In this document: positions 207 through 24,842 of the stretch, piece by piece
Layout of the letters: each line of letters starts with the position of its first letter
How positions within the stretch are numbered: position 1 is the first letter of the stretch
Source of the DNA: a virus
Lineage: Duplodnaviria > Caudoviricetes
Strand: one strand, 5' to 3'
Length of the DNA: 64,000 bases
IMG/VR virus record: IMGVR_UViG_3300033067_000884
Coordinates: 5,650 to 69,649 of that record
Translations under genes and position numbers: made by a program
Notes under the pieces: model-generated
What the model was told of the DNA's origin: nothing
The model's database searches: none
Seen by the model: only the letters and a program-made list of their open reading frames with translations

Positions 207-228
207 ATTATAACACATGTGGACTACC
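207..228 (-). promoter_or_regulatory. phage-specific promoter GGTWGTCC-N8-(-10), copy 1
   Basis: Minus strand GGTAGTCC ACATGTGT TATAAT. Confidence 0.8.
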
Positions 229-487
229 GGCCTGACCAGATCGTCAACAATGGATCAATCATCACAGTGTTCCCCAGCAGCAGATGTACTTCGTTGTCCA
301 GCTTCGCCACTGCCTCTAGCATAGGTGCCGGTGTGCCGCCCATAACAGAAAACAGGACACTCATCATGAACTGATTCAGCTCATGATTATCGGGAAACCG
401 CTCCCGGAGCCGCTGCGCAGTGATAGCTGCTCCACGCTGTAGAGCATCGACCTTCGCATTGTGAACGTCCTCTGCTGTGTACGCCAT
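224..487 (-). CDS. hypothetical protein
   Basis: 87-aa ORF with SD GAGGAG, co-oriented with neighbours. Confidence 0.65.
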   Translation of the reverse strand: MAYTAEDVHNAKVDALQRGAAITAQRLRERFPDNHELNQFMMSVLFSVMGGTPAPMLEAVAKLDNEVHLLLGNTVMIDPLLTIWSGR

Positions 488-546
488 GTTTAGTCTCCTC
501 TAACACGTAAACGTGTATCGCCTAATTCCGCGCTCCACAGGAAAAA

Positions 547-948
547 TCAGTAATCGATAAAGTCACCGTCGCTATCGTACAATTCAGGGTCAAGGCCATT
601 CGAGTCGCCGCTATGATCCTCAGGCGTGGTATATTCACGCTTGTACCACTTATACAACTCGTTCTGGTCACCCCGCACGTCAAGCTTGTCCTTGGCATTA
701 TTGACGATCTTGTGAAATGTGCCTTTATTCATACCCAACTCAGCCGCGCCATCGCGCAATCCACTGCGTAGATATTGCTCAAACACAATCCGCTCATGCT
801 TGGTCAGGCCCGTAAGTTCATCATAGATATGCGCCGGGTGAGTATTTCTGCCAGTAGCGTGATACCCACGATCTGGTTCATGATCTACTTCCTCATCATC
901 GTCGTCATCATCACGTATACCAAGTAGGTTTTTGAGGAAGTTGCTCAT
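547..948 (-). CDS. HTH protein (sigma70 region-4/LuxR-like) with acidic N-terminus
   Basis: LTKHERIVFEQYLRSGLRDGAAELGMNKGTFHKIVNNAKDKL resembles a region-4 HTH; poly-Asp tract RDDDDDDEE; SD AAGGAG. Confidence 0.6.
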   Translation of the reverse strand: MSNFLKNLLGIRDDDDDDEEVDHEPDRGYHATGRNTHPAHIYDELTGLTKHERIVFEQYLRSGLRDGAAELGMNKGTFHKIVNNAKDKLDVRGDQNELYKWYKREYTTPEDHSGDSNGLDPELYDSDGDFIDY

Positions 949-950
949 GC

Positions 951-1175
951 TTAGCTCCTTAGATGTACGATTGCTACGATGATGAGTCCGATCATACCAA
1001 TTACTAACGCCGCTATGTCAAGACGCACGATCACCGGCGTTGCATTGTATGCACTCACTAGCAAAGGCTGGGCACTGCCGCGTACGAACTCCTGAATCAG
1101 CGCAGTGGCAAGACCAATCGCCCCGGCGAGTACAAGGATAGCGGACGCAATAGCAACATAAATGCGGTCAGGCAT
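951..1175 (-). CDS. small membrane protein
   Basis: Two hydrophobic helices; start moved to MPDRIY (1175) because the upstream ATG lies in the promoter. Confidence 0.65.
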   Translation of the reverse strand: MPDRIYVAIASAILVLAGAIGLATALIQEFVRGSAQPLLVSAYNATPVIVRLDIAALVIGMIGLIIVAIVHLRS

Positions 1176-1198
1176 CACATCTCGCTTTCTATAGACAG

Positions 1199-1227
1199 AG
1201 TATAGCACATATGGACAACCGCGTCAA
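1199..1227 (-). promoter_or_regulatory. GGTWGTCC promoter copy 2, with TTGACG -35
   Basis: TTGACG c GGTTGTCC ATATGTGC TATACT, 17-bp spacer. Confidence 0.85.
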
Positions 1228-1529
1228 GCATTTCTGTCTCTGGCAGAGAATAATTCCCCATCAGACTCATCATCAATCCATGGCTCGTAATCCACTGTAT
1301 AAGTCTTGTTCTCCATGAGGAAACCAGATAGAGTCGCAGCTATGTGACCATACGCAATGAATGTCTTAACTATAGGCATAATAGGGTGTTCTCTGTACAT
1401 TTCCACAATTAACTCATGCGGGCGTCTTTTAAATCGGCTCCCCTTAAAGAATACTATACGCCGAACTGTACCCGTGAACGTTGCTTCTTGTATTGGATTA
1501 TCCTGCGGCATTGTTGACTCTCCCGCCAT
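1224..1529 (-). CDS. hypothetical protein
   Basis: 101-aa ORF in a run of co-oriented genes. Confidence 0.6.
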   Translation of the reverse strand: MAGESTMPQDNPIQEATFTGTVRRIVFFKGSRFKRRPHELIVEMYREHPIMPIVKTFIAYGHIAATLSGFLMENKTYTVDYEPWIDDESDGELFSARDRNA

Positions 1530-1911
1530 GAAACTGGCGTACTAGCACCCATTCTTCACGGGTAGGGTCATCTTCCATATCGCGTATCTCATGATACTGC
1601 AAGAGGTCAAGACGGAAGCAATACGCCCAGCGATTACGATAATGATCCGGTAGCCGATAATCTGGCATACTACGTAGCCGCCCATCTCTGCCCATATAGC
1701 TACACGCCTGTACAGGGACAAATTCGTAGTATTCAATGTCCCGATTCTGCCCGGATAAATCAGGCAGAAACGCATAGTCACTAGGAGCGAATGGGCCGAC
1801 AGTATCAGGTGTTTCAAGCATATTGGAAAATGTCACTTGCCCACGATTCGCTTCAATGATTTCGCGGGTACGTTGGGCAGCTAATTTATGCAGTTCCAAT
1901 GCGGATGGCAT
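1498..1911 (-). CDS. hypothetical protein
   Basis: 137-aa ORF with SD AAAGGA, downstream of promoter copy 3. Confidence 0.7.
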   Translation of the reverse strand: MPSALELHKLAAQRTREIIEANRGQVTFSNMLETPDTVGPFAPSDYAFLPDLSGQNRDIEYYEFVPVQACSYMGRDGRLRSMPDYRLPDHYRNRWAYCFRLDLLQYHEIRDMEDDPTREEWVLVRQFHGGRVNNAAG

Positions 1912-1977
1912 AATGATCCTTTATTTGCTACTAGAACGGCAAGAATGTTTGCACGTCATACTACTATATATGTAGTA

Positions 1978-1999
1978 AGTATAACATATCTGGACAACC
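1978..1999 (-). promoter_or_regulatory. GGTWGTCC promoter copy 3
   Basis: GGTTGTCC AGATATGT TATACT. Confidence 0.8.
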
Positions 2000-2211
2000 T
2001 ACGCCGTAATATCGACGTATGTACTACGCACTTGGGTAATTCTGAGACTATCTAGCTCAGCCCATTGAATGGACTTGATGGCGGCGATATGTAGCCAGAA
2101 ATATACCCGCGCTTCGGCGGAACTGCCGACGGGTATAACACTATAGTCTTGAATGATAACATCCGGCGCGTTCTTATAGAAATACTCGAAAGAAATGATA
2201 TGGATGTGCAT
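1999..2211 (-). CDS. hypothetical protein (70 aa)
   Basis: Start moved to MHIHII with SD GAGGGAG; the longer track ORF begins inside the tRNA. Confidence 0.55.
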   Translation of the reverse strand: MHIHIISFEYFYKNAPDVIIQDYSVIPVGSSAEARVYFWLHIAAIKSIQWAELDSLRITQVRSTYVDITA

Positions 2212-2299
2212 AGCTATTCTCCCTCTATGGATTTCCCCAATATGAGTTCGTTTTATATACCACACATATTGAGTCACAGTTCTTCGCCGCGATGTGATG

Positions 2300-2385
2300 T
2301 GGTGGGCTAGATGGGATTCGAACCCATATGACATTGCTGTCAGCGGTTTTTAAGACCGCCGTGTATGCCGTTCCACCACTAGCCC
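2300..2385 (-). tRNA. trnL: tRNA-Leu (anticodon UAA) with encoded CCA
   Basis: GGGCTAG/CTAGCCC acceptor stem plus ACCA; D-loop AGTGGTGGAACGGCATACAC; anticodon arm GCGGT-CTTAAAA-ACCGC; long variable arm; T-loop GGTTCGAATCC. Confidence 0.95.
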
Positions 2386-2963
2386 TTATAATACATTGCT
2401 ACATACGCAGATGGCCCCAGCGGTATCTTCGAATATAACGCATCCGAAGATATCTGGTCATATAACTGATACGCCCTGATTGCATTGCTTCGATCCATTA
2501 TTGGATGACTATCATACCAATGTGTTGTAGACACGACACTCGATCCCTCTAATAGGTCAGTCGGCGTTGTATCGAAATCAAAATGCTTCGGACTGGATAG
2601 GATGATCCGAGTGAACAAAACAGACCACCATAGCGCCCGGTATACATGAGCAACTGGGCCGCTAACGGTGATATCCAACGTATAGCGACTGAGTACCTGA
2701 TCTTTAACACTCTCGACAACAAACACAGCTTCGCCGGGTATCCACTTTGTTAGATATGCTTGGAGATTGGCAGCGTATTCTTCACTAACAGAAACAGCAA
2801 AACGAAGGTATAATGTAAATGGTGCCTTTGGGTCATTATAGATGGCCCGGCGCTCCGCATCTGCGTATATATACGCGCCCATGTTTGATGCAGCTACTTC
2901 CCGACAAGAAAACGAACCATACATCTTTTGCGTATCCAACTTCATTTTGAATTGTCTAGGCAT
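2379..2963 (-). CDS. hypothetical protein, probable paralog of 12075-12902
   Basis: 194 aa; shares a (S/Y)CR(E/D)V motif and an HVxxA-aromatic-S-x4-R helix with 12075-12902. Confidence 0.7.
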   Translation of the reverse strand: MPRQFKMKLDTQKMYGSFSCREVAASNMGAYIYADAERRAIYNDPKAPFTLYLRFAVSVSEEYAANLQAYLTKWIPGEAVFVVESVKDQVLSRYTLDITVSGPVAHVYRALWWSVLFTRIILSSPKHFDFDTTPTDLLEGSSVVSTTHWYDSHPIMDRSNAIRAYQLYDQISSDALYSKIPLGPSAYVAMYYKG

Positions 2964-3543
2964 CTTCTACTGCTCCAACTAATACTCGTGGCCATTGCCC
3001 TAGTGCAGCAAATGTATAATAATCGTACCGCACAGCAAAGGGCATGATTGTTTTAAGCCACGCGTTCTTCTCTTCCACACTCCGCATTATAGTCATATTC
3101 CACAATCTGTCAATCCCAAGCCAGATCAATGAGTCTAACTTCCCATCTTGACACGTAATGATTGACCCCGTATAATCGCCGCTAAGTAAATACTGGGTGA
3201 CATATAGCATCGCGGAATCGGGCGACAACGTATTGTCCGCAATACACTCGTTATATACGTCAATGTACTGATTGCGATCAGTATGGTCAATGAGCGTACG
3301 CACGCCGGTCTGGGTTATACTGCATTCTGCCATAAAATCCTCGTAGAAGTCGGTCTGCTCACTCAGCGTATAGTCCCGCCGACGCGTAGCCACATACGAT
3401 AACATAGCGGCGCGGATGATTGGGAAGTATGATGGGTTCGCCAAGTGCGAGAGTGAGTGGATTGTTGCATCCGACAGCGTGCGCGTTGTAGCCTGGATTT
3501 GAGCATATGTTAGAATCGCCTGTGCAACCATTATTGCCCCCAA
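2956..3543 (-). CDS. hypothetical protein
   Basis: 195-aa ORF overlapping both neighbours, as in coupled phage genes. Confidence 0.7.
   Translation of the reverse strand: MGAIMVAQAILTYAQIQATTRTLSDATIHSLSHLANPSYFPIIRAAMLSYVATRRRDYTLSEQTDFYEDFMAECSITQTGVRTLIDHTDRNQYIDVYNECIADNTLSPDSAMLYVTQYLLSGDYTGSIITCQDGKLDSLIWLGIDRLWNMTIMRSVEEKNAWLKTIMPFAVRYDYYTFAALGQWPRVLVGAVEDA
3148..3176 (+). promoter_or_regulatory. perfect-consensus sigma70 promoter, antisense to the surrounding genes
   Basis: TTGACA cgtaatgattgaccccg TATAAT, 17-bp spacer. Confidence 0.55.
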
Positions 3544-3953
3544 TTACTCAAATCCAGCTTTGTATACGTCAACGAGTAGTCCCGGTAGAACATCCCTTCT
3601 AGCCGATATTCTTTCTGTAGCGTCTGAGGATGCCGATGTGCCATGTAGTTATAGAGACCGGTGACGTTATCAAAGACGAAGCAATCCTCCCAGTCTTTGG
3701 ACACATAGACATATTTACGCCATGCATAATCCGGCCCGCTTGACGCTGCGGTCATTGACCCCGCCACAACAAGGAACGCGCCGATGTACTCCTGTGTTGC
3801 TGTGTCATGCAATTGCGTAATAATCACAACCCGGCCTAATGCAGCAATGCGACCCTCATCAACCAGTTCCTTTACAAACTGGGTATAATTCGTCACATCA
3901 GTGGGGTCAAGGATTGTGATATCCTGCTCTGTTTCTTGTTTCTTGCGCGCCAT
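3531..3953 (-). CDS. hypothetical protein
   Basis: Start moved to MARKK, TAATG-coupled to the upstream gene. Confidence 0.7.
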   Translation of the reverse strand: MARKKQETEQDITILDPTDVTNYTQFVKELVDEGRIAALGRVVIITQLHDTATQEYIGAFLVVAGSMTAASSGPDYAWRKYVYVSKDWEDCFVFDNVTGLYNYMAHRHPQTLQKEYRLEGMFYRDYSLTYTKLDLSNWGQ

Positions 3954-4246
3954 TATGCCCTCTGTATATTCCGAAGATACTCTCCGTTGAGTAACAGTAC
4001 ATCTACCCAATCATCTGGGCCCACTACGCGTTCAAGATATTCACAGACGCGCCCAAGAGACATTGGTGTTTGCTCCACCTCTATCTGCCCGTTGAGCGCA
4101 TCTGCTGCGATAACTGTACGACTAGTATAACACTGCTGGACAACCTCTCGCACCTTGTACCATGTATTGAAGTAAAAGAACTGCGTAGCAGTACAGACAT
4201 AGATGCTATTGGGAAGGAGCGTTCTCGTAGATGGAGATATTCGCAT
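3953..4246 (-). CDS. hypothetical protein
   Basis: 97-aa ORF; exact start uncertain. Confidence 0.55.
   Translation of the reverse strand: MRISPSTRTLLPNSIYVCTATQFFYFNTWYKVREVVQQCYTSRTVIAADALNGQIEVEQTPMSLGRVCEYLERVVGPDDWVDVLLLNGEYLRNIQRA
4124..4145 (-). promoter_or_regulatory. GGTWGTCC promoter copy 4 (intragenic)
   Basis: GGTTGTCC AGCAGTGT TATACT. Confidence 0.75.
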
Positions 4247-4538
4247 ATGTGCCTATATCATCCGCCGGAATGACGTAGTAGCGTGCAGTGAGCGGAGCCT
4301 GATCCTTCCGCTTCTGGTCATAATCGGCGTATGTTGTATCACCATTGACCAGAACAAACGCAGGTTCAACTGGCGGCTCAAACAAAACCCGGATGCCGAC
4401 AAGCTGATTTGTATCGGTACGCACGATGACCATCACGGCTTCGAGAATGGGCAGATGCTTGGCTATCTGCAACGCAGCGCGGGTGCCATTATACACCGCC
4501 ATATCGATGAACGGCTTGAACTCGTTAGGGAATTCCAT
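4206..4538 (-). CDS. hypothetical protein
   Basis: 110-aa ORF with SD GAGGAAG. Confidence 0.65.
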   Translation of the reverse strand: MEFPNEFKPFIDMAVYNGTRAALQIAKHLPILEAVMVIVRTDTNQLVGIRVLFEPPVEPAFVLVNGDTTYADYDQKRKDQAPLTARYYVIPADDIGTYANISIYENAPSQ

Positions 4539-4721
4539 TTACTTCCTCTCCACAAACAGCGGCAACACCAATAGGATCAGTCCAACAATCAGCGAAAGGA
4601 TGCTGGCGATGTTCAGCGCAATATTCGTAGTACGATACCTTTGTATATAGAGATAGCATACTGCACTGATTGTAAGGAACGTAGCTCCCGCAGCAACGTA
4701 CAACGCAGGTTCCATGAACAC
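4539..4721 (-). CDS. small membrane protein (2 TM)
   Basis: Two hydrophobic segments; SD AAGGGG; GTG start. Confidence 0.65.
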   Translation of the reverse strand: MFMEPALYVAAGATFLTISAVCYLYIQRYRTTNIALNIASILSLIVGLILLVLPLFVERK

Positions 4722-4727
4722 ACCCCC

Positions 4728-5201
4728 TTAATAAAGGTAGAGATACAGCCCCACTTTTGGTAATCTATCAATATCACGCCAATCGCTCTCTCCGACATAT
4801 TGCCATTTATCTACATCCGACGATACTTCAATCGTATTGTATGCCTTTGGCATTCCTTGAGAATCTACCTCAACATGAACCCACAAGCCGCCCTGGTCAA
4901 CTGAACGATAGCTAGCAGAATCCCCGATAGTTCGGCGGCGTTGTAGAGGAGTACGTGGACTCTCCATATAAACAGCCTTTGTGGTAGACGTAAACATGCT
5001 GGGTGTCGTACTCTCCTGCATATAGACCGGCGTACCAGGATCAAGGCGCTCAGCGGCTTCCCCACGACGAACGCGCATTTGTTCCTCAATACGCTCCATC
5101 TGCTCGGCCCGTAGACGACTGGCTTCTACTGCCATTCGGGCGGCTTCAAGTTCTTTAGCCATATCCACAGACTTATTATCACTATATTTTGCGCTTGCCA
5201 T
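4728..5201 (-). CDS. hypothetical protein with N-terminal coiled coil
   Basis: Start moved to MASAKY (SD GGGAG); ELEAARMAVEASRLRAEQMERIEEQMR coiled coil. Confidence 0.65.
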   Translation of the reverse strand: MASAKYSDNKSVDMAKELEAARMAVEASRLRAEQMERIEEQMRVRRGEAAERLDPGTPVYMQESTTPSMFTSTTKAVYMESPRTPLQRRRTIGDSASYRSVDQGGLWVHVEVDSQGMPKAYNTIEVSSDVDKWQYVGESDWRDIDRLPKVGLYLYLY

Positions 5202-5394
5202 TTTTAATCTTCTCTCCCTTAGGTATGCGTATTTCGAAAGTCCCTGTCTCATTGTCAATCTTCCAAACTAACATCTTATTTCCGTCGGTTATCCCTTTTG
5301 CTAGCTGAATCTCTCTAAACGCCTGCCCGATGCCAATAAGAGTGTCACGGGCACGTACCAGCTCAGTGACGTGCCCTTCGATTGTTATGCACAT
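5182..5394 (-). CDS. hypothetical protein
   Basis: Start moved to MCITIEG, immediately after the stop of 5396-5998. Confidence 0.55.
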   Translation of the reverse strand: MCITIEGHVTELVRARDTLIGIGQAFREIQLAKGITDGNKMLVWKIDNETGTFEIRIPKGEKIKNGKRKI

Positions 5395-5395
5395 A

Positions 5396-5998
5396 TTACC
5401 TACGCTGCTGCTGCGCCGAAGCCTTACGCCCGGCGAAGAACGCATTCGTAACCCAGTCCCATGCAATTGATAACGCGATCAGGAATACCCACCAGCCCAG
5501 TGTAGCTGCCGTTAGCGTCCGAATGAATGTAGATACCGTCTCGTATACGCCCGGAGCTGCCCCGAACTGAACACAGAACAGCCAGTAGATACCCACGAAG
5601 TTAATGATTGACTCGATCACGGCTCCAATACGCGCAGCGGTAACATTGTGCCGGAACTGGAAGATCGCAATGCTTAGCCCACCCTGCACGATCAACGCGG
5701 CGACCAGCACAATCATGCCCTCGGTGCTAGATACGATCTGCGGGAGACACGCAACGATCTGCCCACGCTCCCCTAGACACGCTGGCGGAATCTTCATGAA
5801 AATCAGCATTAGCACAATCGCGGTCAGTAACGCTGATAGCACCCAGAAGATTGCACCGTAGATCAGCATCCCAGAAGGGCCTTGCGCTCTGCTCTGCGGT
5901 CTACGCTGGCTATCGCCACCACCACCTCCACCGCGAGGATTGCTACCGCCCTTGTTCTGTTCTGCCCCCTTGTCCTTGTTGTCAGTCTCACCCGCCAT
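5396..5998 (-). CDS. multi-pass membrane protein with Gly/Gln-rich N-terminal tail
   Basis: About 4 hydrophobic helices after GGSNPRGGGGGGDSQRRPQ; SD GAGGTG. Confidence 0.8.
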   Translation of the reverse strand: MAGETDNKDKGAEQNKGGSNPRGGGGGGDSQRRPQSRAQGPSGMLIYGAIFWVLSALLTAIVLMLIFMKIPPACLGERGQIVACLPQIVSSTEGMIVLVAALIVQGGLSIAIFQFRHNVTAARIGAVIESIINFVGIYWLFCVQFGAAPGVYETVSTFIRTLTAATLGWWVFLIALSIAWDWVTNAFFAGRKASAQQQRR

Positions 5999-6010
5999 GA
6001 AAGCACCTCG

Positions 6011-6811
6011 CTATAGTTTAATTAGTTGATCGGTTGTCTCGCTTTGGTGTATATACATTCCCTCGTACGAAGGCGATAGCGCCTGGGGATTGATCGCCTG
6101 CGTAACCAACACCGATGTCCCGGCGCGTACGGTCACCATCTGAAACGCTTTGATCTCAGTAATACGCCCGAACTTGTGCATCCGCCCCCAATAGGTCAGT
6201 GCCCAATCTTTCACAGACAACAACACTGTCGGGGACGTATTGAACAGAAACCCGTTATCATCGATGGATACATAATGCAGCTCCCTATTACCCCGCAGGA
6301 GCGTTACATGCCCATCAAGCTCAAGCGCAAATGCCCACTGGCTATCCGCGCCGAACTGAGCTGTCCATGCGTTCACTAGCTCGGCAGTAATGTCCCCACC
6401 ACGCTCATTCAGCAACGCCACCAGCAACTTGAACGCCTGGTAACTATCTACCTTCGGCTCATTCCCTTGGGCTGCTGGCATGTCCTTGATAAAGCCGTTA
6501 TGGGCTGCCATCAACACGCGCCCATCATCTAGCCGAAAGCGGAACGGATGCGATGCATGTGGCGAAATCTCGGTATTACGCGATGCAGCGCGCACATGCC
6601 CAATCCAGAACCGATCATTCGCCAAGCCTGTGAGCCATCCTGACCCCACATGAAGATAGGGAGAATGTGTCTTAGAGACTACTAGGCCATCGGTGACACC
6701 CACGCCGTCGTGCTGTCCATCAGCGTTACTTGCCAGTAATGCCCGGTCAAAGAATAGTCGCCGCATTGACGGGTCAATACGTACGCAGGTATCTACCGTG
6801 ATTCGACACAT
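6011..6811 (-). CDS. class II (Ntn) glutamine amidotransferase / gamma-glutamyl hydrolase
   Basis: N-terminal MCRI (Cys nucleophile), GHVRAAS, HPF, HNG, DS motifs. Confidence 0.85.
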   Translation of the reverse strand: MCRITVDTCVRIDPSMRRLFFDRALLASNADGQHDGVGVTDGLVVSKTHSPYLHVGSGWLTGLANDRFWIGHVRAASRNTEISPHASHPFRFRLDDGRVLMAAHNGFIKDMPAAQGNEPKVDSYQAFKLLVALLNERGGDITAELVNAWTAQFGADSQWAFALELDGHVTLLRGNRELHYVSIDDNGFLFNTSPTVLLSVKDWALTYWGRMHKFGRITEIKAFQMVTVRAGTSVLVTQAINPQALSPSYEGMYIHQSETTDQLIKL

Positions 6812-7206
6812 TATATCTCTCCTACTGATTGTACGATTGATGCACCCCAGTCAGCGTTCGCTTCGCTGAATACACGCTGGGCCTCTGCTTCTAATCCGGC
6901 TGCTACGAACATAACGCCGCAGTTTGTCTCCACACTGATATCCGTCGGCTTGCCTGTTAGCACACAACTAGATGTGATCTTGTACGTATTCTGTGGCCCG
7001 GCATATCGACACTTCCCGCAGATAAGCAGCATATCCACGCTGGTGACTTCGGTACCCACAGCAATCGTCTGGGTCGCTTTGAGCGGACTGATCGCAACGA
7101 GCTTATTGGTATCGGCGTCAACCTCAACAATGCCCTCTGCGATAAGAACCGGGCCGCGAATACCCAGTTCGGTTAAGGACGCGCTGCACTTTGGACACTG
7201 GATCAT
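6811..7206 (-). CDS. zinc-ribbon hypothetical protein
   Basis: CPKC and CGKC pairs; start moved to MIQCPKC. Confidence 0.7.
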   Translation of the reverse strand: MIQCPKCSASLTELGIRGPVLIAEGIVEVDADTNKLVAISPLKATQTIAVGTEVTSVDMLLICGKCRYAGPQNTYKITSSCVLTGKPTDISVETNCGVMFVAAGLEAEAQRVFSEANADWGASIVQSVGEI

Positions 7207-7874
7207 GTTGTACGACCCTTCGGCGTATAGCCACATACAGTACACGGTACTTGACGCGGCTTGGGTGAATTACACACAAAACACTTCCCGGCAGCCTCTA
7301 AGCTGGCCCGCTTCCGATCAGCACTCGTTGTCGGATTCTGTAGCACATCCTCAACAACTTGCTGGCGTACCGATACAGTAGCGACACCGGTGATCTTCGG
7401 TATACGCCCCTTCTGCTCATCATAGTCCGCCAGCATCGAGCGGAAATCTGCCCGACTGATGATCATGCACGACATGTTCATATGGTACAGATTATAGATG
7501 CTGTTGATGATATGCTCCCGCTCAACACGTACCCATCTACCCGCACCCTCGTTCTGGTAAAACTTACCATACGTGCTAACAAGTTGATTGATACGCGGGT
7601 CAAGCATAAACGGCGCAGATGAACTCTGGACAATATAATCCTGCGCCGCAGCTCGGTCATTCTCGATCAGCTTACACAACAGAATGCGCCCCTGCACCCT
7701 CTCAGACGTAACCCGTGAGCCATTACGCTCGGACAATGCCAGGTACAGACGAACAGCCGCGATCTTAAACCCCGGAGAGTTCGTCGGAGCTGGGTATAGC
7801 CGATTTGACATACGCGCCGAGGATATCACGCTATTGATAAAGTCCTGATCTTTGCGCGTCAAAGGAATTGTCAT
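7203..7874 (-). CDS. hypothetical protein with C-terminal zinc ribbon
   Basis: CFVC...CTVC at the C-terminus; start MTIP overlaps the upstream TGA. Confidence 0.7.
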   Translation of the reverse strand: MTIPLTRKDQDFINSVISSARMSNRLYPAPTNSPGFKIAAVRLYLALSERNGSRVTSERVQGRILLCKLIENDRAAAQDYIVQSSSAPFMLDPRINQLVSTYGKFYQNEGAGRWVRVEREHIINSIYNLYHMNMSCMIISRADFRSMLADYDEQKGRIPKITGVATVSVRQQVVEDVLQNPTTSADRKRASLEAAGKCFVCNSPKPRQVPCTVCGYTPKGRTT

Positions 7875-8878
7875 TTCCACTCCCAATCTAAGTCAAACGA
7901 CTCCGGCAGCACATACGACTGTAGTGCCTGAATAGTTGATGCTATTGTAGCATAGCCGGACAACCTATCACCCACGCGTGCATTCAATTCCCGGCACTCA
8001 TCCATGTTATGCTGATTAATCGCCGGAACAAGTCGGTCAAGCACCTCGCTATATGACCCAAAGATACTCATGAGATACTTCACCGTCGCCGACTGACCCT
8101 CAGCTTCGACAACATCCATGATATGCCCGCACACCGCACTGGCAGCAGTAAACATCAGCCGCGCCACTTGCTCGGTTTGCACCAGTGCCTGAGCGGGCAG
8201 CGTGCGATACTCAAATGTCCACAGGTCAGTGTTCACCCGACACATACCGGCGCTGCCATATAACGCCATTCGCTGTAATGCCTGCGGGCTTGTGCAGAGG
8301 AAGCCCGATGCCGTGCCCAGCACACTATCCATCGCAGCGATGGTGTACGTCAGCAGGGCGTTATCCGAGATGATCTTCTCGCCCACTTGCACATGAATAT
8401 GCCCGCCGCTTGTGCGAAATGGATACTGCTTCGGGTCAGGTCGATCAGGAATCTCAACGCTGTCGTAGACACAGAAGTCCGGCGCACAGCCCAAGATTTG
8501 CAGCGAACACTTCTTCCCAAACTCCGGCGGCAGACGATCAATGTACGCCATATCCGCCGGGAAGTGTGGTTCAACAGTGAGCTTGACACCACGCGCTGCA
8601 AGGAGATTGCGCGTAGCTTGCAAGTTACCGCGAAGGTTCGTCACCATCGTCTCCACGTCGCTGGTCGGGGTCAGCGTAAACTCTACCGCCATACCATCAG
8701 GCGTTAGTGTGCCATGCGGCAGCACAATATCCGGATGATCGACGTTCTGAACGCCCATGGCATAGTACGCCGGGATAGGCAGGCCCAGCAATCGATCTTC
8801 GAGACCGTACTGCCGAAGAATGCTATCCGACTCTGCGACGGCTACCAGCTCCGGGTCACTGCCAAGTGTAGGATACAT
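7871..8878 (-). CDS. phiEco32-like COOH-NH2 ligase type 2
   Basis: LGSDPE, DGMAVEF, GCAPD, RTSGGHIH, YGSAG..R and EYRTL motifs of the PF14395-type family. Confidence 0.9.
   Translation of the reverse strand: MYPTLGSDPELVAVAESDSILRQYGLEDRLLGLPIPAYYAMGVQNVDHPDIVLPHGTLTPDGMAVEFTLTPTSDVETMVTNLRGNLQATRNLLAARGVKLTVEPHFPADMAYIDRLPPEFGKKCSLQILGCAPDFCVYDSVEIPDRPDPKQYPFRTSGGHIHVQVGEKIISDNALLTYTIAAMDSVLGTASGFLCTSPQALQRMALYGSAGMCRVNTDLWTFEYRTLPAQALVQTEQVARLMFTAASAVCGHIMDVVEAEGQSATVKYLMSIFGSYSEVLDRLVPAINQHNMDECRELNARVGDRLSGYATIASTIQALQSYVLPESFDLDWEWK
7944..7965 (-). promoter_or_regulatory. GGTWGTCC promoter copy 5 (intragenic)
   Basis: GGTTGTCC GGCTATGC TACAAT, about 70 nt upstream of the next start. 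Confidence 0.75.
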
Positions 8879-10383
8879 TAGTGTAGTCCTCCTGATAGAA
8901 TCATCTCAGTTGAGATTGAAATCGGTTCTTCCTTCTTTGTTGCGTACAACAATACACTCTCGCCCAGTTTATCCATATCAAAGTGTGAGCGTACAACAGC
9001 CGGGGGCAACTGCCCGATCAAACCCAACATATACGGCACCCACTTTGTCATGACATAGTTCGGATTATTGATGTTACCTTCCGGGTCAAGCATTCGAGTG
9101 AACTTAGGATCGAGAAAAAACATACCCACCGAGAATAATGCGTCATGCGCCGATGCGTCATAGCCCGCCTTAACATGGTGGTTCCACCAGTTGATCATAT
9201 AGGTGCTTACTGGCGTAAACGGCTTGATGTATTTTGTCTCATCCTCAGCACTCGTCGGGCACAACATCTGTGAGAGAATATCAAACTCCTTTAACGTCAC
9301 GCGGCACAGAAACAACGCCGGGCTTGGGCGCTCATACGCGTCCTCATACCCCAGGATTGACGCTGCCCAATACGCCGACAACTCACTGCGTAATGGAGAT
9401 AGCTTCCCCGCAAGATACTGCCATAGCAACCTACGTCGCTTCATTGTCAGTTCTTCGGTATTCGGCTCATTCACCCCCAGTACGACCGGCTTTGTCGGGC
9501 GCGGTGTTGTCACGGGCGGCGCAATAACGAAGCGTTGGTTGCTCTCTCCAAGATCATCGCTTGCGTTTCTTACGCTTACGCTTGTACTGGGGGTTTGGGT
9601 TTTTGGGGCTGTATTGCTCCATACCACGGTAGATGTCTGCGCCTGAACGTGTTTTGGGTCGATGTCCGATACGACCACCTCCCCAGCACCTAGCGGGAAC
9701 CGCAATAGCTTGTTATCAGCAATCGGATAAGGCACGCGATCATTCTCTATGCCATGCACCGCTGCTAGATACGCTTTTGCAAACGCCAGCGCCTTGATAT
9801 TGGTATGAACAAGATACCCATTCCCCACTTCCAACGCCGCCAGTGTACGTGTCTTGCCCCGCAACGCATAAACATGATCGCGCCAGTGCAACATCACCGC
9901 GTAGTGACTGTCATCTTGAAACTGCCCTAGCCACTCGTTGATTAGGTCAGCGTCAATATCATCGGTATGTCGCTCCGCCATCATCGTAGCCAGGATAGAC
10001 AGCGCCCGATACGAATCAGTGTTCGGTGTACCCTGGTTATACACATATTTCGTACCACTGAAATAGCCATTATGCACAGCAATCAGGGTCTCTCCGTTCA
10101 CATCGAAGTGATACGGGTGATTCTCAATACGCGTACGTCCTGTACCGCCACTTGCCTTGCGCAAATGACTGATGATGAATTTGCGCTGGTTTACCCGTCG
10201 TAACCAGATGGGTGTATCCTCGAAATACCAGTCTGACCCGCGCCAGGTGTTCTCGGTGTCCGTCACACCCCAGCCATCTTTCTGCCCAAGCTCATCATGA
10301 CTGGTGCGCAACATCAGTTCATGAACGAGTTGTGCTTTCGGTATGCGGACATCCGTGAATGTCGCAAGGCATAGTCGGCACAT
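8878..10383 (-). CDS. class II glutamine amidotransferase with long C-terminal extension
   Basis: MCRL, SHLRKAS, HPY, HNG, TDS; T/P-rich linker then about 190 aa of unknown domain. Confidence 0.85.
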   Translation of the reverse strand: MCRLCLATFTDVRIPKAQLVHELMLRTSHDELGQKDGWGVTDTENTWRGSDWYFEDTPIWLRRVNQRKFIISHLRKASGGTGRTRIENHPYHFDVNGETLIAVHNGYFSGTKYVYNQGTPNTDSYRALSILATMMAERHTDDIDADLINEWLGQFQDDSHYAVMLHWRDHVYALRGKTRTLAALEVGNGYLVHTNIKALAFAKAYLAAVHGIENDRVPYPIADNKLLRFPLGAGEVVVSDIDPKHVQAQTSTVVWSNTAPKTQTPSTSVSVRNASDDLGESNQRFVIAPPVTTPRPTKPVVLGVNEPNTEELTMKRRRLLWQYLAGKLSPLRSELSAYWAASILGYEDAYERPSPALFLCRVTLKEFDILSQMLCPTSAEDETKYIKPFTPVSTYMINWWNHHVKAGYDASAHDALFSVGMFFLDPKFTRMLDPEGNINNPNYVMTKWVPYMLGLIGQLPPAVVRSHFDMDKLGESVLLYATKKEEPISISTEMILSGGLH

Positions 10384-10386
10384 GCA

Positions 10387-11457
10387 TTAACCCCCTCGTA
10401 TAAGTAACTTGAACGCTTCGGATCGGTCATCGCGTTGATCCCTATTTGAGATCGTCATCACGCCGGTTGATGGAAGATTCAGCACCGGCTGACTTGGATA
10501 ATGGGACAGCAAGTTCTGTTGCGCACAGCCCTTCTGCCAGTTCTCTCCCCAGAGTTGACTCACATCCATGTCAAGTAGGTTATTCACCCAGTCAACATCA
10601 ACCTTGGGCGCACTGCCCAGCACAAAATCAAAGTCCGGCAACTGCCGCTTCGCAGCAAGCTGATGGACATGATACACGAAGTCTACCAATATATCGAAAT
10701 ACTGATACAGCCCGTCAAATACGCGCCACTCAATTGTGCCGGTGCGTAGAATTGACGCAATGTTCAGTCCGTGCAAACGATGCGGCATGTAATGCTCTAG
10801 CCCACTCGACCAATACTGATCGAGTCTGCCCCACGCCGCAACGAACTCGCTGGCACTGGTAGCCGCCACAAGATCGGGCCAACGAACCAGCGGCCCTACT
10901 TTTGACCCCCACTGCACGCCAATCGGCGCCGAGAGAGGACGAGCAAACTTGTGATCATTCGGGCTGCCTTGATATGACCGGCAACCACGATGCAATGCTC
11001 CGCCACACGCCACGCGATAGATGATCGCTTCTAGGGCCTTGAACCAGATGCACAGATGCTGGACATCCTTCCATGACTCATTGTTTGCATCGACATGCAC
11101 ATGGATGCTTGTGCGCGGGTTCTGTGGCGTTGTGCTAAAGAAATACGCCAGCTTCTGGGAGATCGGTCTGAACTCCTCAAACGTATACGGCTCGGTGATA
11201 ATCTCCAAACCATACGGCTGCTGCTGCTTCATGCCCGCGCTCAATATAGGCGCGCCGCGCTCTGTCTCTTGCGGGATGACTGGCAGTGTCCCGGCCAGAT
11301 ATGTATGATCACGCACGCTACCATCATTATGAAGATGGAAACGCAACCAGGGCTTGAGACCATCGGTTGCGTTTGTGCCTAGTCGAAAGAATTCCAGCTC
11401 ACTGCCTACAGTGGTCTGCATGTTAATCGGCATAGTTGCCACCTTGTAGAAAGACAC
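10387..11457 (-). CDS. putative amidoligase (glutamine synthetase-like fold)
   Basis: TVGSELE, DGSV, EIIT, TSIHVHV, GLN and GTIEWR motifs of the PF12224-type family. Confidence 0.88.
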   Translation of the reverse strand: MSFYKVATMPINMQTTVGSELEFFRLGTNATDGLKPWLRFHLHNDGSVRDHTYLAGTLPVIPQETERGAPILSAGMKQQQPYGLEIITEPYTFEEFRPISQKLAYFFSTTPQNPRTSIHVHVDANNESWKDVQHLCIWFKALEAIIYRVACGGALHRGCRSYQGSPNDHKFARPLSAPIGVQWGSKVGPLVRWPDLVAATSASEFVAAWGRLDQYWSSGLEHYMPHRLHGLNIASILRTGTIEWRVFDGLYQYFDILVDFVYHVHQLAAKRQLPDFDFVLGSAPKVDVDWVNNLLDMDVSQLWGENWQKGCAQQNLLSHYPSQPVLNLPSTGVMTISNRDQRDDRSEAFKLLIRGG

Positions 11458-12091
11458 GTTCCATATACGTCAGGAACTGATTATGCCCTAGCACCTCAGG
11501 ATGCCACTGCACCGTCAACGCGTCACTATATAGCACCGCTTCTACCGTCGTATCCTTCGCCCGTGCTAATACAACGCCGCCCTCCGGCATCTGCTTAATC
11601 GCTTGGTGGTGCATAGAGTTCACGTTCACGATATGCTGTGATTGTAACACACGCGGACTACCGTTCGGCGTCGATCTCATCAAGTCCACGAAGCCGCTGG
11701 ACACAGCGTCATCAGTCATATAGATCGGATGCTGCCACGAATGCCCGGCCCCGACTTGGCGACTGATATCCTGATACAGTGTGCCTTTCCGCTTTGCTGC
11801 GATGAACTGATGCCCACGGCAGATACCCAGCATCGGCACATGCAGTTCCAACGCAATGTCATATAGACGGCTTTCCCACTTATCACGCTGCTCAGAGAAG
11901 CTAGAGTATAGGTTCTCCTCGCCGTACATCGCCGGGTTGATGTCGATGCCGCCTTCGAATAGGATAATACAATCCCCACCCGACATCAGCGTGCGCAGCT
12001 CATCATCCGACGCATTACGCCGAGGGAATACATTGGCAATGCCCTCAGCATGAGAAAAGAACATGCCACCGCAGCTATTGATTACCCGCAC
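11423..12091 (-). CDS. peptidase C26 / class I glutamine amidotransferase (PuuD-like gamma-glutamyl hydrolase)
   Basis: EGGIDINP, GICRG nucleophile, NSMHHQ, QWHPE; GTG start after SD AAGGAG. Confidence 0.9.
   Translation of the reverse strand: MRVINSCGGMFFSHAEGIANVFPRRNASDDELRTLMSGGDCIILFEGGIDINPAMYGEENLYSSFSEQRDKWESRLYDIALELHVPMLGICRGHQFIAAKRKGTLYQDISRQVGAGHSWQHPIYMTDDAVSSGFVDLMRSTPNGSPRVLQSQHIVNVNSMHHQAIKQMPEGGVVLARAKDTTVEAVLYSDALTVQWHPEVLGHNQFLTYMERVFLQGGNYAD
11641..11662 (-). promoter_or_regulatory. GGTWGTCC promoter copy 6 (intragenic)
   Basis: GGTAGTCC GCGTGTGT TACAAT. Confidence 0.75.
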
Positions 12092-12902
12092 TTGGCGCTC
12101 CTTGATATTCTGCAAACACCGGCCGTAACGCATCGATGGTTCGATACCGGCTAATACGCGATTCTAGCTCTTCCTGGGTATCGATCCAGTTTATCCAACT
12201 CACACGCCGGAACACAGACAGCGGCCCGACTTTATGCTGCAACATCTTGCTGGCAATAGAGTCGGTGTTGTCGCCAATACGCAGTGCTTCCCACATTGCC
12301 AGATGCTCAGTATCTCCCCGGCGCTTGACCAGCGTATTAGCATCTTTCCAATCATAGCGCTTCTGCGTGGGCGATAGATAGCCGCCCGGACCTTCGGTCA
12401 TTGCAAGGCGCTGTAGGTAGATCGAGAAGTAGAACGCGTACGGGACATGATAATCGCCGCGCATCTTGATCGTGGGCATATCTCGCCCTGTAAGCTCATG
12501 CGGGTACACGCCCTGCGAGAACTCAATCGTCGGGAACTTGCGGACGAGCTTGCTAATGATCAGCGGAACACTATGATCGCGCATCCACTCATACGTCGCA
12601 AACGCACTGCCCACTGGGATGCGAGGTAGTGTAATCGCCTGAACGGACTCGTTCTCGAACCGCAGGTCATTCAGGCGATTATTGATCCAGACATGCCATC
12701 CCCATTGAACAGCCGCACCATAGATTTCGGCAGTAGGGGTCGGCAGACGATCAATCACGGCGTTATAGTCCGTGGCAAGCAACCGCATCATCCCGCCATA
12801 GGACACATCGCGGCAGTAGTTACTAGTCATCGGCACACGACGCTCAGGGATATCCGCGCCGGTAACTTTCCAACTCGAATAAAATGACGCTGGCACATTC
12901 AC
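12075..12902 (-). CDS. hypothetical protein of the amide-ligase cluster
   Basis: 275 aa between the ATP-grasp and C26 genes; SD AAGGAG; YCRDV motif. Confidence 0.75.
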   Translation of the reverse strand: MNVPASFYSSWKVTGADIPERRVPMTSNYCRDVSYGGMMRLLATDYNAVIDRLPTPTAEIYGAAVQWGWHVWINNRLNDLRFENESVQAITLPRIPVGSAFATYEWMRDHSVPLIISKLVRKFPTIEFSQGVYPHELTGRDMPTIKMRGDYHVPYAFYFSIYLQRLAMTEGPGGYLSPTQKRYDWKDANTLVKRRGDTEHLAMWEALRIGDNTDSIASKMLQHKVGPLSVFRRVSWINWIDTQEELESRISRYRTIDALRPVFAEYQGAPSAGNQ

Positions 12903-12905
12903 TCC

Positions 12906-13730
12906 TTACTGTACAAATGTACGAAAATATTCCCTATACGCCTCATACGTTGAGGGCATATCATGTGGTGTTGACCCATCATCATCGCGCCGACTAATTC
13001 CCGGCGCTGAATTGATCTCGAAGATGACCCATTCGCCATTACGCGTCAGGGCCATATCTAGCGCGCCAAAATCGAGTCCACACGCGTTGGTCGCGGCAAT
13101 CGAAATCTCACGCGCCCTCTGCGCAAGCGCATCACCAACAAGCGTTGAGATGGAGCGGGCACTGAATCGCGCTCCATTATCGTAGTTACGTACAAGTACG
13201 CGGCTACCTGTCGGAATGTATTTAATCTGCTCACATATGACCCGGCCCCCGGCGACATGAATGCGAATTTCGTGTGCTTTCGACACAACCTGTGAATAGA
13301 AATCAAATCGCTGATCGGGCCGCGGTAAGACACCGCGATCCATAACCTCAATTCCAGCGCCACCTGTAAGTCCGTCTTGACGTGCAAGATATTTCCCTCG
13401 CTGATAAAATGGCCGCCGATCATCGGGCAGCACAATTGTCGGGTCTGTCACAACACGCGGTATCGGCAGATTCGCAGCGCGCAACGCATCAAAGGTACGC
13501 ATCTTCCGTACGCTTCTGCTAATATCTGCATTTAGTATACGCGATGTGGACAACCGCATACCCGGTGTTCGGCTTAACATCTGCGGCCCACAACCCCAAT
13601 TAACATTCACAGTCATTGTCCCACGTCGCGCCCGATTACGCGTGGGGAAATCAGGGAACATCACCGACTGGCGTAACTCCCGCGCAATCGAACGAGCGAA
13701 CGTGGCGCGGGTGTGATAGATGTAAAACAT
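12906..13730 (-). CDS. ATP-grasp (RimK-like) ligase
   Basis: K(x)R motif with GGAGI, EIRIHV, DFGALD, EINSAPG. Confidence 0.88.
   Translation of the reverse strand: MFYIYHTRATFARSIARELRQSVMFPDFPTRNRARRGTMTVNVNWGCGPQMLSRTPGMRLSTSRILNADISRSVRKMRTFDALRAANLPIPRVVTDPTIVLPDDRRPFYQRGKYLARQDGLTGGAGIEVMDRGVLPRPDQRFDFYSQVVSKAHEIRIHVAGGRVICEQIKYIPTGSRVLVRNYDNGARFSARSISTLVGDALAQRAREISIAATNACGLDFGALDMALTRNGEWVIFEINSAPGISRRDDDGSTPHDMPSTYEAYREYFRTFVQ
13534..13555 (-). promoter_or_regulatory. GGTWGTCC promoter copy 7 (intragenic)
   Basis: GGTTGTCC ACATCGCG TATACT. Confidence 0.7.
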
Positions 13731-13796
13731 TATAACGCCTCTGTGGATACTTCTTCCACGGTAATCCTCAACACAACGATCTCGCAGTTGCGTATC

Positions 13797-13973
13797 TTAT
13801 ACACCGGTCTCCTTCCGACATACAGTACAGCGCCGCTTTGTGCCCTTACCACATAGATTATGCAGCCGCCGATTGGTGCCGTACTGCTTGTCCTGGAACG
13901 CGTGAACACATGTACATGACGCCACGACTGTTCCATACTTCGCTGTAGACTTGCTTGCTTTCCCCTCAGACAT
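13797..13973 (-). CDS. small Cys/His-rich (zinc-binding) protein
   Basis: CTCVH...HNLC...CTVC; start moved to MSEGK. Confidence 0.65.
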   Translation of the reverse strand: MSEGKASKSTAKYGTVVASCTCVHAFQDKQYGTNRRLHNLCGKGTKRRCTVCRKETGV

Positions 13974-14003
13974 TGTGTACTCGCTTTCTATAATTGTGCA
14001 TAG

Positions 14004-14025
14004 AGTATAACACACAAGGACTACC
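14004..14025 (-). promoter_or_regulatory. GGTWGTCC promoter copy 8
   Basis: GGTAGTCC TTGTGTGT TATACT. Confidence 0.8.
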
Positions 14026-14401
14026 GCCTGCGGTCTATTCTACGTTTCTGAAATGGTTTTGTTCTCTTACGAACTCTTGGAGGTCGTGGCGGTGTTTTCG
14101 GGGGTTCTACCTCAAACACTGATTTCATTTTCCACCACCCTATGCTGCTGCACTCAACGTCAGATGGGCCGGATATAAGCCAGTGCATCACCTCATCCTC
14201 AGTCAGAATACGCAACCCACAATGCCACACACTACAATAACCATCCATGCCACCATGTACATATGATTGTATACGTACCGTACCATAGTCCGGCTCATTC
14301 GGCACGTCGTATTTCTCTGTCACGATCCCCGGATGATAGTTACAATCTTCAACATAATCCCCGATTTGTATCTGGTCTAATTCATTGATAGGTGTAGGCA
14401 T
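14021..14401 (-). CDS. hypothetical protein with basic C-terminus
   Basis: Start moved to MPTPIN (SD GAGGA); the upstream ATG lies in a terminator. Confidence 0.7.
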   Translation of the reverse strand: MPTPINELDQIQIGDYVEDCNYHPGIVTEKYDVPNEPDYGTVRIQSYVHGGMDGYCSVWHCGLRILTEDEVMHWLISGPSDVECSSIGWWKMKSVFEVEPPKTPPRPPRVRKRTKPFQKRRIDRRR

Positions 14402-14414
14402 AGTATCCTCAAAC

Positions 14415-14452
14415 AAAAAAAAAGACCCCCGATACATTACTGCATCAGGGGC
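14415..14452 (-). terminator. intrinsic terminator
   Basis: CCCCTGATGCA-GTAA-TGTATCGGGGG stem followed by TC and T9. Confidence 0.85.
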
Positions 14453-14919
14453 GATTGTTCGCGCACATGTGGTAGAGCAAATTCCAGATTTGCTGACTGA
14501 AGGGTACGTATCCTTTCAATCAGCGATAAATCAAACCTCTCGAAGTCATAACTAACCGCGCCGGTTTCTTCGTTCTGAGTAAACTTGAGGCACCAGCGGT
14601 TTGTTACGCCGCGATAGCTCAAATCATCGGTTATCTGTACAACGACAAAGCGGCTATCAGCAATACGAACGCGCACATGTCCCTGCGGGACGTTCATATA
14701 GAGGCACTCATCCTCACCGACATCGTACTTATCGGACAAGCCGCCCAGGTCACCGTAGATAACATACTCGCCGGTCTCAACATTGGTCAAGCGAACACGC
14801 CCCTGAGCAGTGGGCGTATCTACCCAGTATAATGTATTCAGCTCGACGTATGTGCGGACAAGACTGAGATACACAAATGGGTTACGCACATACGCAAACA
14901 CTGGATGATCGTGTGACAT
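14437..14919 (-). CDS. hypothetical protein
   Basis: Start moved to MSHDHP, downstream of promoter copy 9. Confidence 0.7.
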   Translation of the reverse strand: MSHDHPVFAYVRNPFVYLSLVRTYVELNTLYWVDTPTAQGRVRLTNVETGEYVIYGDLGGLSDKYDVGEDECLYMNVPQGHVRVRIADSRFVVVQITDDLSYRGVTNRWCLKFTQNEETGAVSYDFERFDLSLIERIRTLQSANLEFALPHVREQSPLMQ

Positions 14920-14950
14920 ACTGTACTCACTTCTATAAGTATATGTACAC

Positions 14951-14972
14951 ACTATAACATAACTGGACTACC
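14951..14972 (-). promoter_or_regulatory. GGTWGTCC promoter copy 9
   Basis: GGTAGTCC AGTTATGT TATAGT. Confidence 0.75.
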
Positions 14973-20981: not shown

Positions 20982-21010
20982 ATTATAGCACATCTGTGCT
21001 ACCGTGTCAA
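20982..21010 (-). promoter_or_regulatory. consensus sigma70 promoter of the recA operon, with a palindromic operator
   Basis: TTGACA cggtagcacagatgtgc TATAAT (17 bp, extended -10); palindrome TAGCACA-N2-TGTGCTA at 20986-21001. Confidence 0.9.
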
Positions 21011-24277: not shown

Positions 24278-24842
24278 GAATAAGCTCCTTAAACTCTTGT
24301 AGTGTGGTCAATACATAATCTCCTCTGCTACAGCGTAGAATAGCCACCGGTAGTTTACGCTCATGTAACGAGAATGCCATATCGATCATTGCTTTGGTCA
24401 TTGTAATTCCACTTTTCATACCGGCGTCAATAATCTCAGCGCCGGTCAGACGTTCTAATGTATCGTATTTCTGTAGAACATCTGTGCTAATTATAACATA
24501 CTTTGCAAACCTTACATCATGATATTGGAATACAAGGGCTGCAAACCGAGCTTTCATCTTTACCGCATCGACGTGCATCTTATCAAACCAGCGGAAATCA
24601 ATACGGATACGTGGACTACCATCTCTATCCATACCGGCGCTGTATTTACATTCAATAAAGATACGCCCGATCTTCTCGGTCTCTACCTCACAGTCGCCTT
24701 TCATTGAACCTGCGCCGGACATGGGAACACGTCTGCCAAGGAGAAACGCTGCGACATTACGCTCCATCTGACCTGATCGTGCCCTGATTCGTTTACTGTT
24801 AGCGCGTAGCGCAGCTAGTCTCTCCTCAGCATACGTTGCCAT
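24237..24842 (-). CDS. Holliday junction resolvase-like PD-(D/E)XK nuclease
   Basis: G..MERNVA, RVPMSGA, KGD...IECK. Confidence 0.75.
   Translation of the reverse strand: MATYAEERLAALRANSKRIRARSGQMERNVAAFLLGRRVPMSGAGSMKGDCEVETEKIGRIFIECKYSAGMDRDGSPRIRIDFRWFDKMHVDAVKMKARFAALVFQYHDVRFAKYVIISTDVLQKYDTLERLTGAEIIDAGMKSGITMTKAMIDMAFSLHERKLPVAILRCSRGDYVLTTLQEFKELIHDYPSDPDAGRVA

Follow-up and report, generated by a model that had tools for sequence, protein, structure and literature searches.

Phage-specific promoter classes show how viruses reprogram the polymerase of their host, and few have been worked out, MotA/AsiA of T4 among them. T4 middle promoters combine a MotA box, (a/t)(a/t)(a/t)TGCTTtA, centred at −30, with a σ70 −10 element 12 ± 1 base pairs (bp) away, and about half of them carry a TGn extension (PMC2988021). 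Here we analyse a class of sites in a 69,649-bp IMG/VR phage contig (IMGVR_UViG_3300033067_000884; partial, 37% complete according to CheckV) at which the octamer GGTWGTCC stands 8 bp ahead of a −10 hexamer. The window is the whole 64,000-nucleotide (nt) stretch that was analysed, bases 5650–69649 of the contig, and coordinates are those of the window unless given otherwise. As in T4, a host −10 element, often with TGn, is paired with a phage-specific, non-palindromic, single-site box that replaces the −35 element, and the arrangement recurs in many copies serving pre-replicative and accessory genes (PMC2988021).

A sequence-only reading of the window had drawn this analogy, and its working logic is fair: the class works like T4 middle promoters without being a member of them, and the general principle is already established. 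The sequence and spacing of the box exclude membership, and no motA or asiA gene was found in the partial contig (no match to MotA, PF09114, or AsiA, PF09010). The box here is GGTWGTCC, with no TGCTT in any copy; it is centred at about −24.5, exactly 8 bp from the hexamer in 11 of 11 copies, and it is invariant, whereas the MotA box tolerates many changes. The candidate binder is a four-helix helix–turn–helix (HTH) protein of the GerE/LuxR type rather than a double wing like MotA.

Other described systems share single features with the sites. Extended −10 promoters (TGn/TRTGn) have the same TG at −15/−14, often as TGTG, the same near-consensus hexamer and the same lack of a −35, yet they need no further upstream element, whereas here an extra 8-mer is present that is stricter than the hexamer. 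Extended −10 promoters, among them the −35-less middle and late promoters of phages that disable σ region 4, stay active when −35 recognition is lost. The stoperators of cluster A mycobacteriophages (bound by L5 gp71) are likewise short, asymmetric, multi-copy sites in one orientation at gene junctions, but they are not tied to a −10 element or a start nucleotide and act on elongation, while every copy here is a complete promoter. T7-like promoters consist of about 20 contiguous conserved bases running through +1, unlike the present sites, in which five variable bases follow the box. The lambdoid Q-binding element belongs to one late promoter with a σ-dependent pause; here there are eleven promoters, and the contig gave no match to a Q family. 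In the literature, a search for the 8-mers led to primers only and to no described promoter class with this box, in keeping with the earlier view that the class is apparently unnamed.

A box at invariant distance from an extended −10 element

The combined pattern GGTWGTCC-N8-TAnnnT occurs nine times in the window, against 0.05 ± 0.22 expected from 100 dinucleotide shuffles, and the nine minus-strand sites reproduce exactly those reported by the sequence-only reading. The bare octamer occurs 10 times (1.96 expected); the tenth box, at 24613–24620, has no −10 hexamer behind it, as had been noticed. For the full contig the count is 11, as the 5.6 kb that precede the window add copies of the motif at contig positions 584 and 2402. 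All 11 are on the minus strand, which is the gene strand, and they are confined to contig positions 563–20621. A scan allowing one mismatch added no copies, where 1.8 were expected by chance, so that the GGTWGTCC element is all-or-none. The gap between box and hexamer is exactly 8 bp in every copy.

All 11 contig copies were aligned. The W position of the box is A in six copies and T in five, and its remaining bases are invariant; the box is non-palindromic, 8 bp long and occupies −28 to −21. The five bases 3′ of it are variable, and a conserved TGTGT stretch lies further downstream. TG is found at −15/−14 in nine of the 11 copies, frequently as TGTG, and in eight of the nine window copies, in agreement with the earlier count; the exception is the copy at 13534. 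The hexamers are TATACT (six copies), TATAAT (two), TACAAT (two) and TATAGT (one), giving the consensus TAYAMT, and are less strictly conserved than the box. Seven nt past the hexamer, every copy has an A, preceded by C or T in 10 of 11. Upstream of the box, information content is approximately zero. Flanks without information show that each copy is an independent site; the copies are not duplicated segments.

A −35 element at 16–18 nt is recognisable only in the copy at 1199 (TTGACG, 17-nt spacer), as previously stated; the others reach at most four of six matches at any allowed spacing. Most copies therefore lack the canonical σ70/σA −35 (TTGACA-like, 16–18 bp from the −10) and show the features of extended −10 promoters, namely TG, a near-consensus hexamer and a predicted start A at 7 nt. 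At the level of sequence architecture, the sites are complete σ70-type promoters, start nucleotide included. That architecture, together with the co-orientation of the copies with the genes, their placement near start codons and a conservation of the DNA beyond protein constraint (see below), argues for a phage-specific promoter class, and for the earlier proposal of a box at −28 to −21 that takes the place of the −35.

Elsewhere the phage has perfect promoters of the host type. On the minus strand these are TTGACA-17-TATAAT at 28765 and 21010 and TTGACA-16-TATAAT at 28109 and 3113; on the plus strand, TTGACA-17-TATAAT at 55265. They head the replication genes and the rightward operon. Their presence indicates that the polymerase serving the phage uses a normal −35, and the absence of that element from 10 of 11 box promoters is therefore a property of the class.

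These canonical promoters have features of their own. In the segment 28588–28856 (minus strand), a perfect TTGACA-17-TATAAT precedes about 60 nt of leader made up of purines only (GA-rich) and a second TGT-TATACT element, ahead of an 87-amino-acid (aa) open reading frame (ORF). Its paralogue, the plus-strand promoter at 55265, shares with it the tandem TTGACA hexamers and the start region ACGGAT...TTCAAG. A second exact TTGACA stands 7–8 nt from the −10, at the position equivalent to the box, at 28756 and 24231 (minus) and 55275 (plus), and TTGACT does so at 55410 (minus); the spacers at 21010 and 3113 hold GGTAGCAC and GATTGTGG, respectively. T-W-G at −26 to −24 is common to all strong promoters of the phage. 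We considered the tandem TTGACA as a general class with a proximal −35 and gave the idea little weight, as paralogous promoter cassettes account for two of its three examples.

Conservation in relatives

No near-identical phage record was found, and cultured phages are not close (best tblastn identities 25–29%). Uncultured homologues of the COOH-NH2 ligase encoded at 7871–8878, the 3′ end of which contains one box promoter, reach 44–67% identity. No relative of the ligase was found in the genome collection, and none of a 501-aa neighbour or of a capsid-like protein in IMG/VR.

A scan of relatives, which the sequence-only reading had proposed, turned up the complete motif twice, without mismatch and on the gene strand, in a 1926-nt soil-metagenome contig (L023) whose ligase is 59% identical. 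Both copies have TG and C-A at the predicted start. One lies at the orthologous site in the 3′ end of the ligase gene, where AGG TTG TCC (R L S) is present in both phages. Over their length the two ligase genes are 60% identical in DNA, and 42% of their identical residues share a codon. Across the eight motif codons the DNA identity is 83%, although no more than five of the eight residues agree, and the motif stretch ranks second of 326 eight-codon windows in DNA conservation, level with the catalytic TSGGHIH motif. Judged from this pair of genes, the motif at the ligase site is conserved at the DNA level beyond protein constraint.

Ten further ligase homologues have the segment R-L-S-x-[YHCF]-[AVS]-[TIN]-[ILV]. 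All of the residue combinations in these proteins could encode the box with TAnnnT, and all but one could encode TG as well. Because every combination can still encode box and hexamer, the protein sequences suggest that the embedded promoter was kept across the clade.

Outside this group, the motif was not found in more distant ligase-bearing phages or in relatives of the deoxynucleoside monophosphate (dNMP) phosphatase (L036–L038). Across IMG/VR, the exact motif occurs in five other contigs, at no promoter-like site: four contigs have a single copy, and L012 has one additional match to a relaxed pattern. In a distant phage that shares the ligase (G001, IMGVR_UViG_3300011102_000283; complete, 105.9 kb, 38% G+C), the equivalent region (80–100 kb, plus strand, L033–L035) contains six to eight extended −10 promoters with an ACA start. 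Their box, AGTTWGRY, is looser and occupies −28 to −21, and neither a GerE-like gene nor a σ gene was detected in G001. This phage gives a weak hint that the promoter layout is older than the GGTWGTCC box itself. As a minimum, the motif offers a marker with which transcription units of this uncultured phage lineage can be annotated, and it illustrates that promoters can be maintained inside coding sequence through constraint on both codons and residues.

A candidate reader of the box

Family searches recognised no regulator in the contig other than a pair of small HTH proteins, and the Q antiterminator families (PF03589, PF06530) had no match; since the contig is partial, absences of this kind prove little. 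Both proteins, P0046 (contig 2631–2903, 90 aa) and P0047 (contig 2402–2647, 81 aa), are encoded on the minus strand of L009 and have an HTH of the GerE/LuxR type. Their genes are adjacent and overlapping (translationally coupled) and lie inside the motif block, 2.7–3.2 kb before the start of the window. P0047 ends with a stop codon that touches the box of the copy at contig 2402.

The Pfam GerE scores of the two proteins (18.6 and 14.4 bits) fall below the cut-off of 23.5, and weak Sigma70_r4 matches are also found. A search with P0046 in a library of 1.8 billion proteins gave 20 matches; all ten that were tested match Pfam GerE, nine of them above the cut-off. Single-sequence AlphaFold models (predicted local distance difference test scores 74 and 79) are four-helix bundles with the HTH of the LuxR/FixJ/NarL type. 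Their best PDB matches are the DNA-binding domains of GerE, DosR, NarL, LiaR, VraR and StyR (root-mean-square deviation 0.8–2.4 Å over about 60 residues), with probability 1.00 for GerE, NarL, DosR, LiaR and VraR and target-normalised template-modelling scores of about 0.8–0.9 against GerE, NarL, DosR and LiaR. For P0046, the best structural match is GerE (1fse).

In being little more than a four-helix HTH, P0046 and P0047 resemble GerE of Bacillus subtilis and other stand-alone LuxR/NarL HTH proteins, and the GerE fold is related to σ70 region 4. They differ from GerE in being two divergent tandem paralogues (24% identical), both with acidic C-terminal tails, with Pfam scores below the cut-off and with fused counterparts elsewhere. 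The putative target differs too, being a single asymmetric site in the spacer rather than a dyad near or upstream of the −35.

Several of the library matches, of 139–182 aa, are single chains with two HTH domains (for example, P0054 and P0056). The N-terminal domain of P0054 is best matched by P0047 and its C-terminal domain by P0046. Because both domains occur fused in single chains elsewhere, P0046 and P0047 probably form one two-HTH unit. The fused protein P0056 is encoded on a 28,032-bp Joint Genome Institute (JGI) contig, and the ligase homologue P0009 also comes from a JGI contig of 28,032 bp. As these contigs match in source and size, one relative appears to carry both the ligase and the fused factor. 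The pair provides a concrete, synthesisable candidate reader with a fold like that of σ region 4.

Two early ORFs, 28324–28587 (87 aa) and 27361–28023 (220 aa), were considered as AsiA and MotA by size; neither had a family match. From the impression given by its sequence and its primase and helicase neighbours, the 220-aa product may be a single-strand DNA-binding protein.

Proposed activation through the box and alternative readings

We consider it somewhat probable that the box promoters form a phage-specific class in which recognition is divided: the extended −10 is read by the host polymerase and the box by a phage factor, with P0046/P0047 as the best candidate. A host polymerase with its primary σ (σ70/σA type) would recognise TG and TAYAMT and start at the A 7 nt downstream. 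A phage-encoded factor would bind GGTWGTCC as a single site and confer specificity and timing on the class; most likely it would act positively, substituting for the contact between σ region 4 and the −35. P0046/P0047 would be that factor, although we propose this assignment more tentatively than the existence of the factor. The class would drive the distal 20 kb of the leftward array, which comprises the amidoligase/ATP-grasp/amidotransferase cluster, six transfer RNA (tRNA) genes and many small ORFs, and the factor would distinguish it from the host-type promoters by its timing or its strength. With the sequence-only reading, we infer that these promoters may depend on an activator or a phage σ factor.

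The geometry is unusual, with an invariant asymmetric box within the spacer, 8 bp from the −10, and to our knowledge no σ70-family contact gives sequence specificity at that place. If the box is an activator site, it would represent a new way of replacing the −35 contact, and box and factor would make a compact, orthogonal promoter/factor pair.

Several points weigh against activation by P0046/P0047. GerE/LuxR proteins usually bind paired half-sites as dimers, and the 11-copy alignment contains no second conserved half-site upstream of the box, unlike the sites of such dimers. An extended −10 with a five-of-six hexamer can function without an upstream contact, so the box need not activate. The two genes lie within their own putative regulon and would first need basal or read-through expression. 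No close homologues of P0046/P0047 were detectable, and the co-occurrence of ligase and factor in a relative rests on the equal sizes of two JGI contigs. The complete but distant G001 has a similar promoter layout with a different, looser box and no GerE-like gene. Finally, with the contig as incomplete as it is, a σ factor or another regulator may sit in the missing part.

In a more specific form, which we regard as doubtful, P0046/P0047 would be a surrogate of σ region 4, docking on a host polymerase with its own region 4 idle or displaced and reading a −35-like box. The TWGTCC of the box resembles the −35 hexamer TTGACA, and the box would be read about 8 bp closer to the −10 than any σ70 geometry allows. 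Such a surrogate would be a second, structurally unrelated solution to σ appropriation, built on a σ-4-like fold.

The alternative that survives best, though we hold it to be unlikely, is that the sites are constitutive extended −10 promoters served by host polymerase alone and that a phage repressor, possibly P0046/P0047, uses the box as its operator and switches the class off or delays it. In many bacteria TG with a near-consensus hexamer suffices for −35-independent initiation, and nine of the 11 copies have TG. A protein bound to the box would sit in the spacer, at −28 to −21 and perhaps reaching TG, and would clash with polymerase and block it. A two-HTH factor spans about 18–20 bp and could cover the box together with the conserved TGTGT stretch, and at SigK promoters GerE itself has positive as well as negative effects (PMC4750369). 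Operators, however, are usually variable dyads, whereas this is a single asymmetric 8-mer that is invariant at 13 of 13 sites and kept more strictly than the hexamer itself. The −35 has also gone from 10 of 11 copies while being perfect in other promoters of the phage, which fits a replacement contact better. Because the site is single and asymmetric, the box invariant and the −35 systematically lost, we favour activation over repression.

Rather improbable is a phage σ factor, or another specificity subunit of the polymerase, that is encoded in the missing part of the genome and reads box and hexamer as a bipartite promoter. All-or-none fidelity of an 8-mer is typical of promoters for phage-specific σ factors and polymerases, and the contig has room for such a gene in what it lacks. 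What host primary σ reads is nevertheless all there (TG, TAYAMT and the A at 7 nt), and the 8-bp gap is about 9 bp shorter than any σ70-family geometry with region 4 on the β-flap allows. The five variable bases after the box speak against a promoter for a single-subunit polymerase. The phage phiEco32, after which the COOH-NH2 ligase family is named, has its own σ factor (PMC12276001); no match to σ70 region 2 (PF04542) was found in the partial contig (G000) or in three ligase-sharing records (G001–G003). T7-type polymerase (PF00940) had no match in the contig either, in a search that gave no signal in the control genomes and is to that extent uninformative.

We give an equally low probability to the box being an element that the host's own polymerase or a host factor reads without any phage protein. 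The T-W-G core at −26 to −24 is also found in the spacers of canonical promoters (within TTGACA at 28756, 24231 and 55275, and within the spacer sequences given above for 21010 and 3113), and the distant G001 has its loose box at the same position. This T-W-G pattern was picked post hoc, however, and two of the canonical promoters are mutual paralogues. Elements of host promoters are degenerate; this 8-mer does not vary and is restricted to one strand of one 20-kb block, and the five other IMG/VR contigs that contain the exact motif hold it at no promoter-like site.

Roles other than that of a promoter (a signal for RNA processing or structure, a stoperator-like block to elongation, a site where a Q-type antiterminator loads, or a repeat used in nicking or packaging) are very improbable: the sites are asymmetric, orientation-locked and at gene junctions, as stoperators are, and the lambda Q-binding element likewise lies between −35 and −10, but none of these roles needs the exact 8-nt link to TG-TAYAMT with an A 7 nt on, no Q-family gene was found, and six sites share no RNA fold (z-scores +0.5 to −2.6) and match no Rfam family, the only Rfam matches being to a tRNA.

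Gene context and individual copies

Leftward from about 55.2 kb, every gene is on the minus strand. A tape measure protein of 3700 aa belongs to the virion module, and the replication module includes a DnaB-like helicase, a primase, a split family-A polymerase, a UvsX/RecA-like protein, an exonuclease and a T5-Dmp-like dNMP phosphatase. The polymerase is divided between ORFs 22592–23710 and 21017–21883, with an HNH endonuclease ORF (21964–22566) between them, all on the minus strand. A dNMP-kinase-like gene follows the replication module, and the block of box promoters extends leftward from 14972. The families represented in the block are ATP-grasp, Peptidase_C26/GATase, Amidoligase_2, phiEco32-type COOH-NH2 ligase and GATase_6; about 30 small ORFs of the block had no family match in a profile search. 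Six tRNA genes (Leu, Gln, Val, Thr, Met and Arg) lie among the small ORFs on the minus strand, at 2300–2385 of the window and 1737–5217 of L009. The placement of the promoters in the accessory and amide-ligase region, as first reported, holds for the window copies (0–15 kb), but the class extends past the ligase cluster, since seven of the 11 copies are those of tRNA genes and small ORFs of unknown function.

The hexamer lies 15–70 nt ahead of a start codon in eight copies. In seven, promoter and upstream stop codon share bases, and in two of these the stop is the TAG within GGTAGTCC. The sequence-only reading had placed four copies inside ORFs: three such placements are firm (in the ATP-grasp, GATase and ligase genes, at 13534, 11641 and 7944, respectively), while the fourth, at 4124, is probably intergenic because the overlying 97-aa ORF is doubtful. 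The remaining copies overlap the end of the ORF upstream, at its stop or its final codons.

All window copies are on the minus strand, and we describe them in the direction of transcription. The first (14951..14972) reads GGTAGTCC-N8-TATAGT, with the stop codon of the dNMP-kinase-like ORF within the hexamer, and would drive a 160-aa ORF (14437–14919). Directly after this ORF stands a strong terminator-like hairpin (14452–14425, minus strand; 12 pairs and a T run), and for this reason the ORF is probably a monocistronic unit. At the second copy (14004..14025), GGTAGTCC-N8-TATACT, the TAG of the box is the stop of ORF 14021–14437; the ATG of a 58-aa ORF comes 30 nt past the hexamer and is followed by the ATP-grasp gene. 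The third (13534..13555), the sole window copy without TG, lies in the 5′ part of that ATP-grasp (R2K-like) ORF (12906–13730). The fourth (11641..11662) is within the Peptidase_C26/GATase ORF (11423–12133), about 185 nt ahead of the Amidoligase_2 gene, and the fifth (7944..7965) is the copy in the 3′ end of the COOH-NH2 ligase gene, where the codons AGG TTG TCC encode R L S.

The sixth copy (4124..4145) falls within a 192-nt stretch (4011–4202). At the seventh (1978..1999), which lies ahead of a 137-aa ORF (1498–1911), the TAG stop of ORF 1999–2334 overlaps the first G of the box. The eighth (1199..1227) has its −35, TTGACG, at 1227–1222; the 17-nt spacer contains the box, and an ATG follows 23 nt past the hexamer. 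The ninth (207..228) reads GGTAGTCC-N8-TATAAT, with the TAG of the box as the stop of ORF 224–487; downstream of it, beyond the window edge, are a small ORF, tRNA genes and more ORFs.

A further short sequence, ATAGAAAGYGAG, occurs six times on the minus strand, at window positions 14935, 13991, 1192 and 205 and contig positions 4697 and 2374, always 5–7 nt before an ATG. Five of these copies follow box promoters and one has no promoter. We considered ATAGAAAGYGAG as part of a T7/SP6-like promoter and rejected the idea, as its distance from the hexamer varies from 1 to 13 nt while that from the ATG is constant. Its fixed distance from the ATG instead makes it part of translation initiation, and the leader is reminiscent of the start-associated sequences of some mycobacteriophages.

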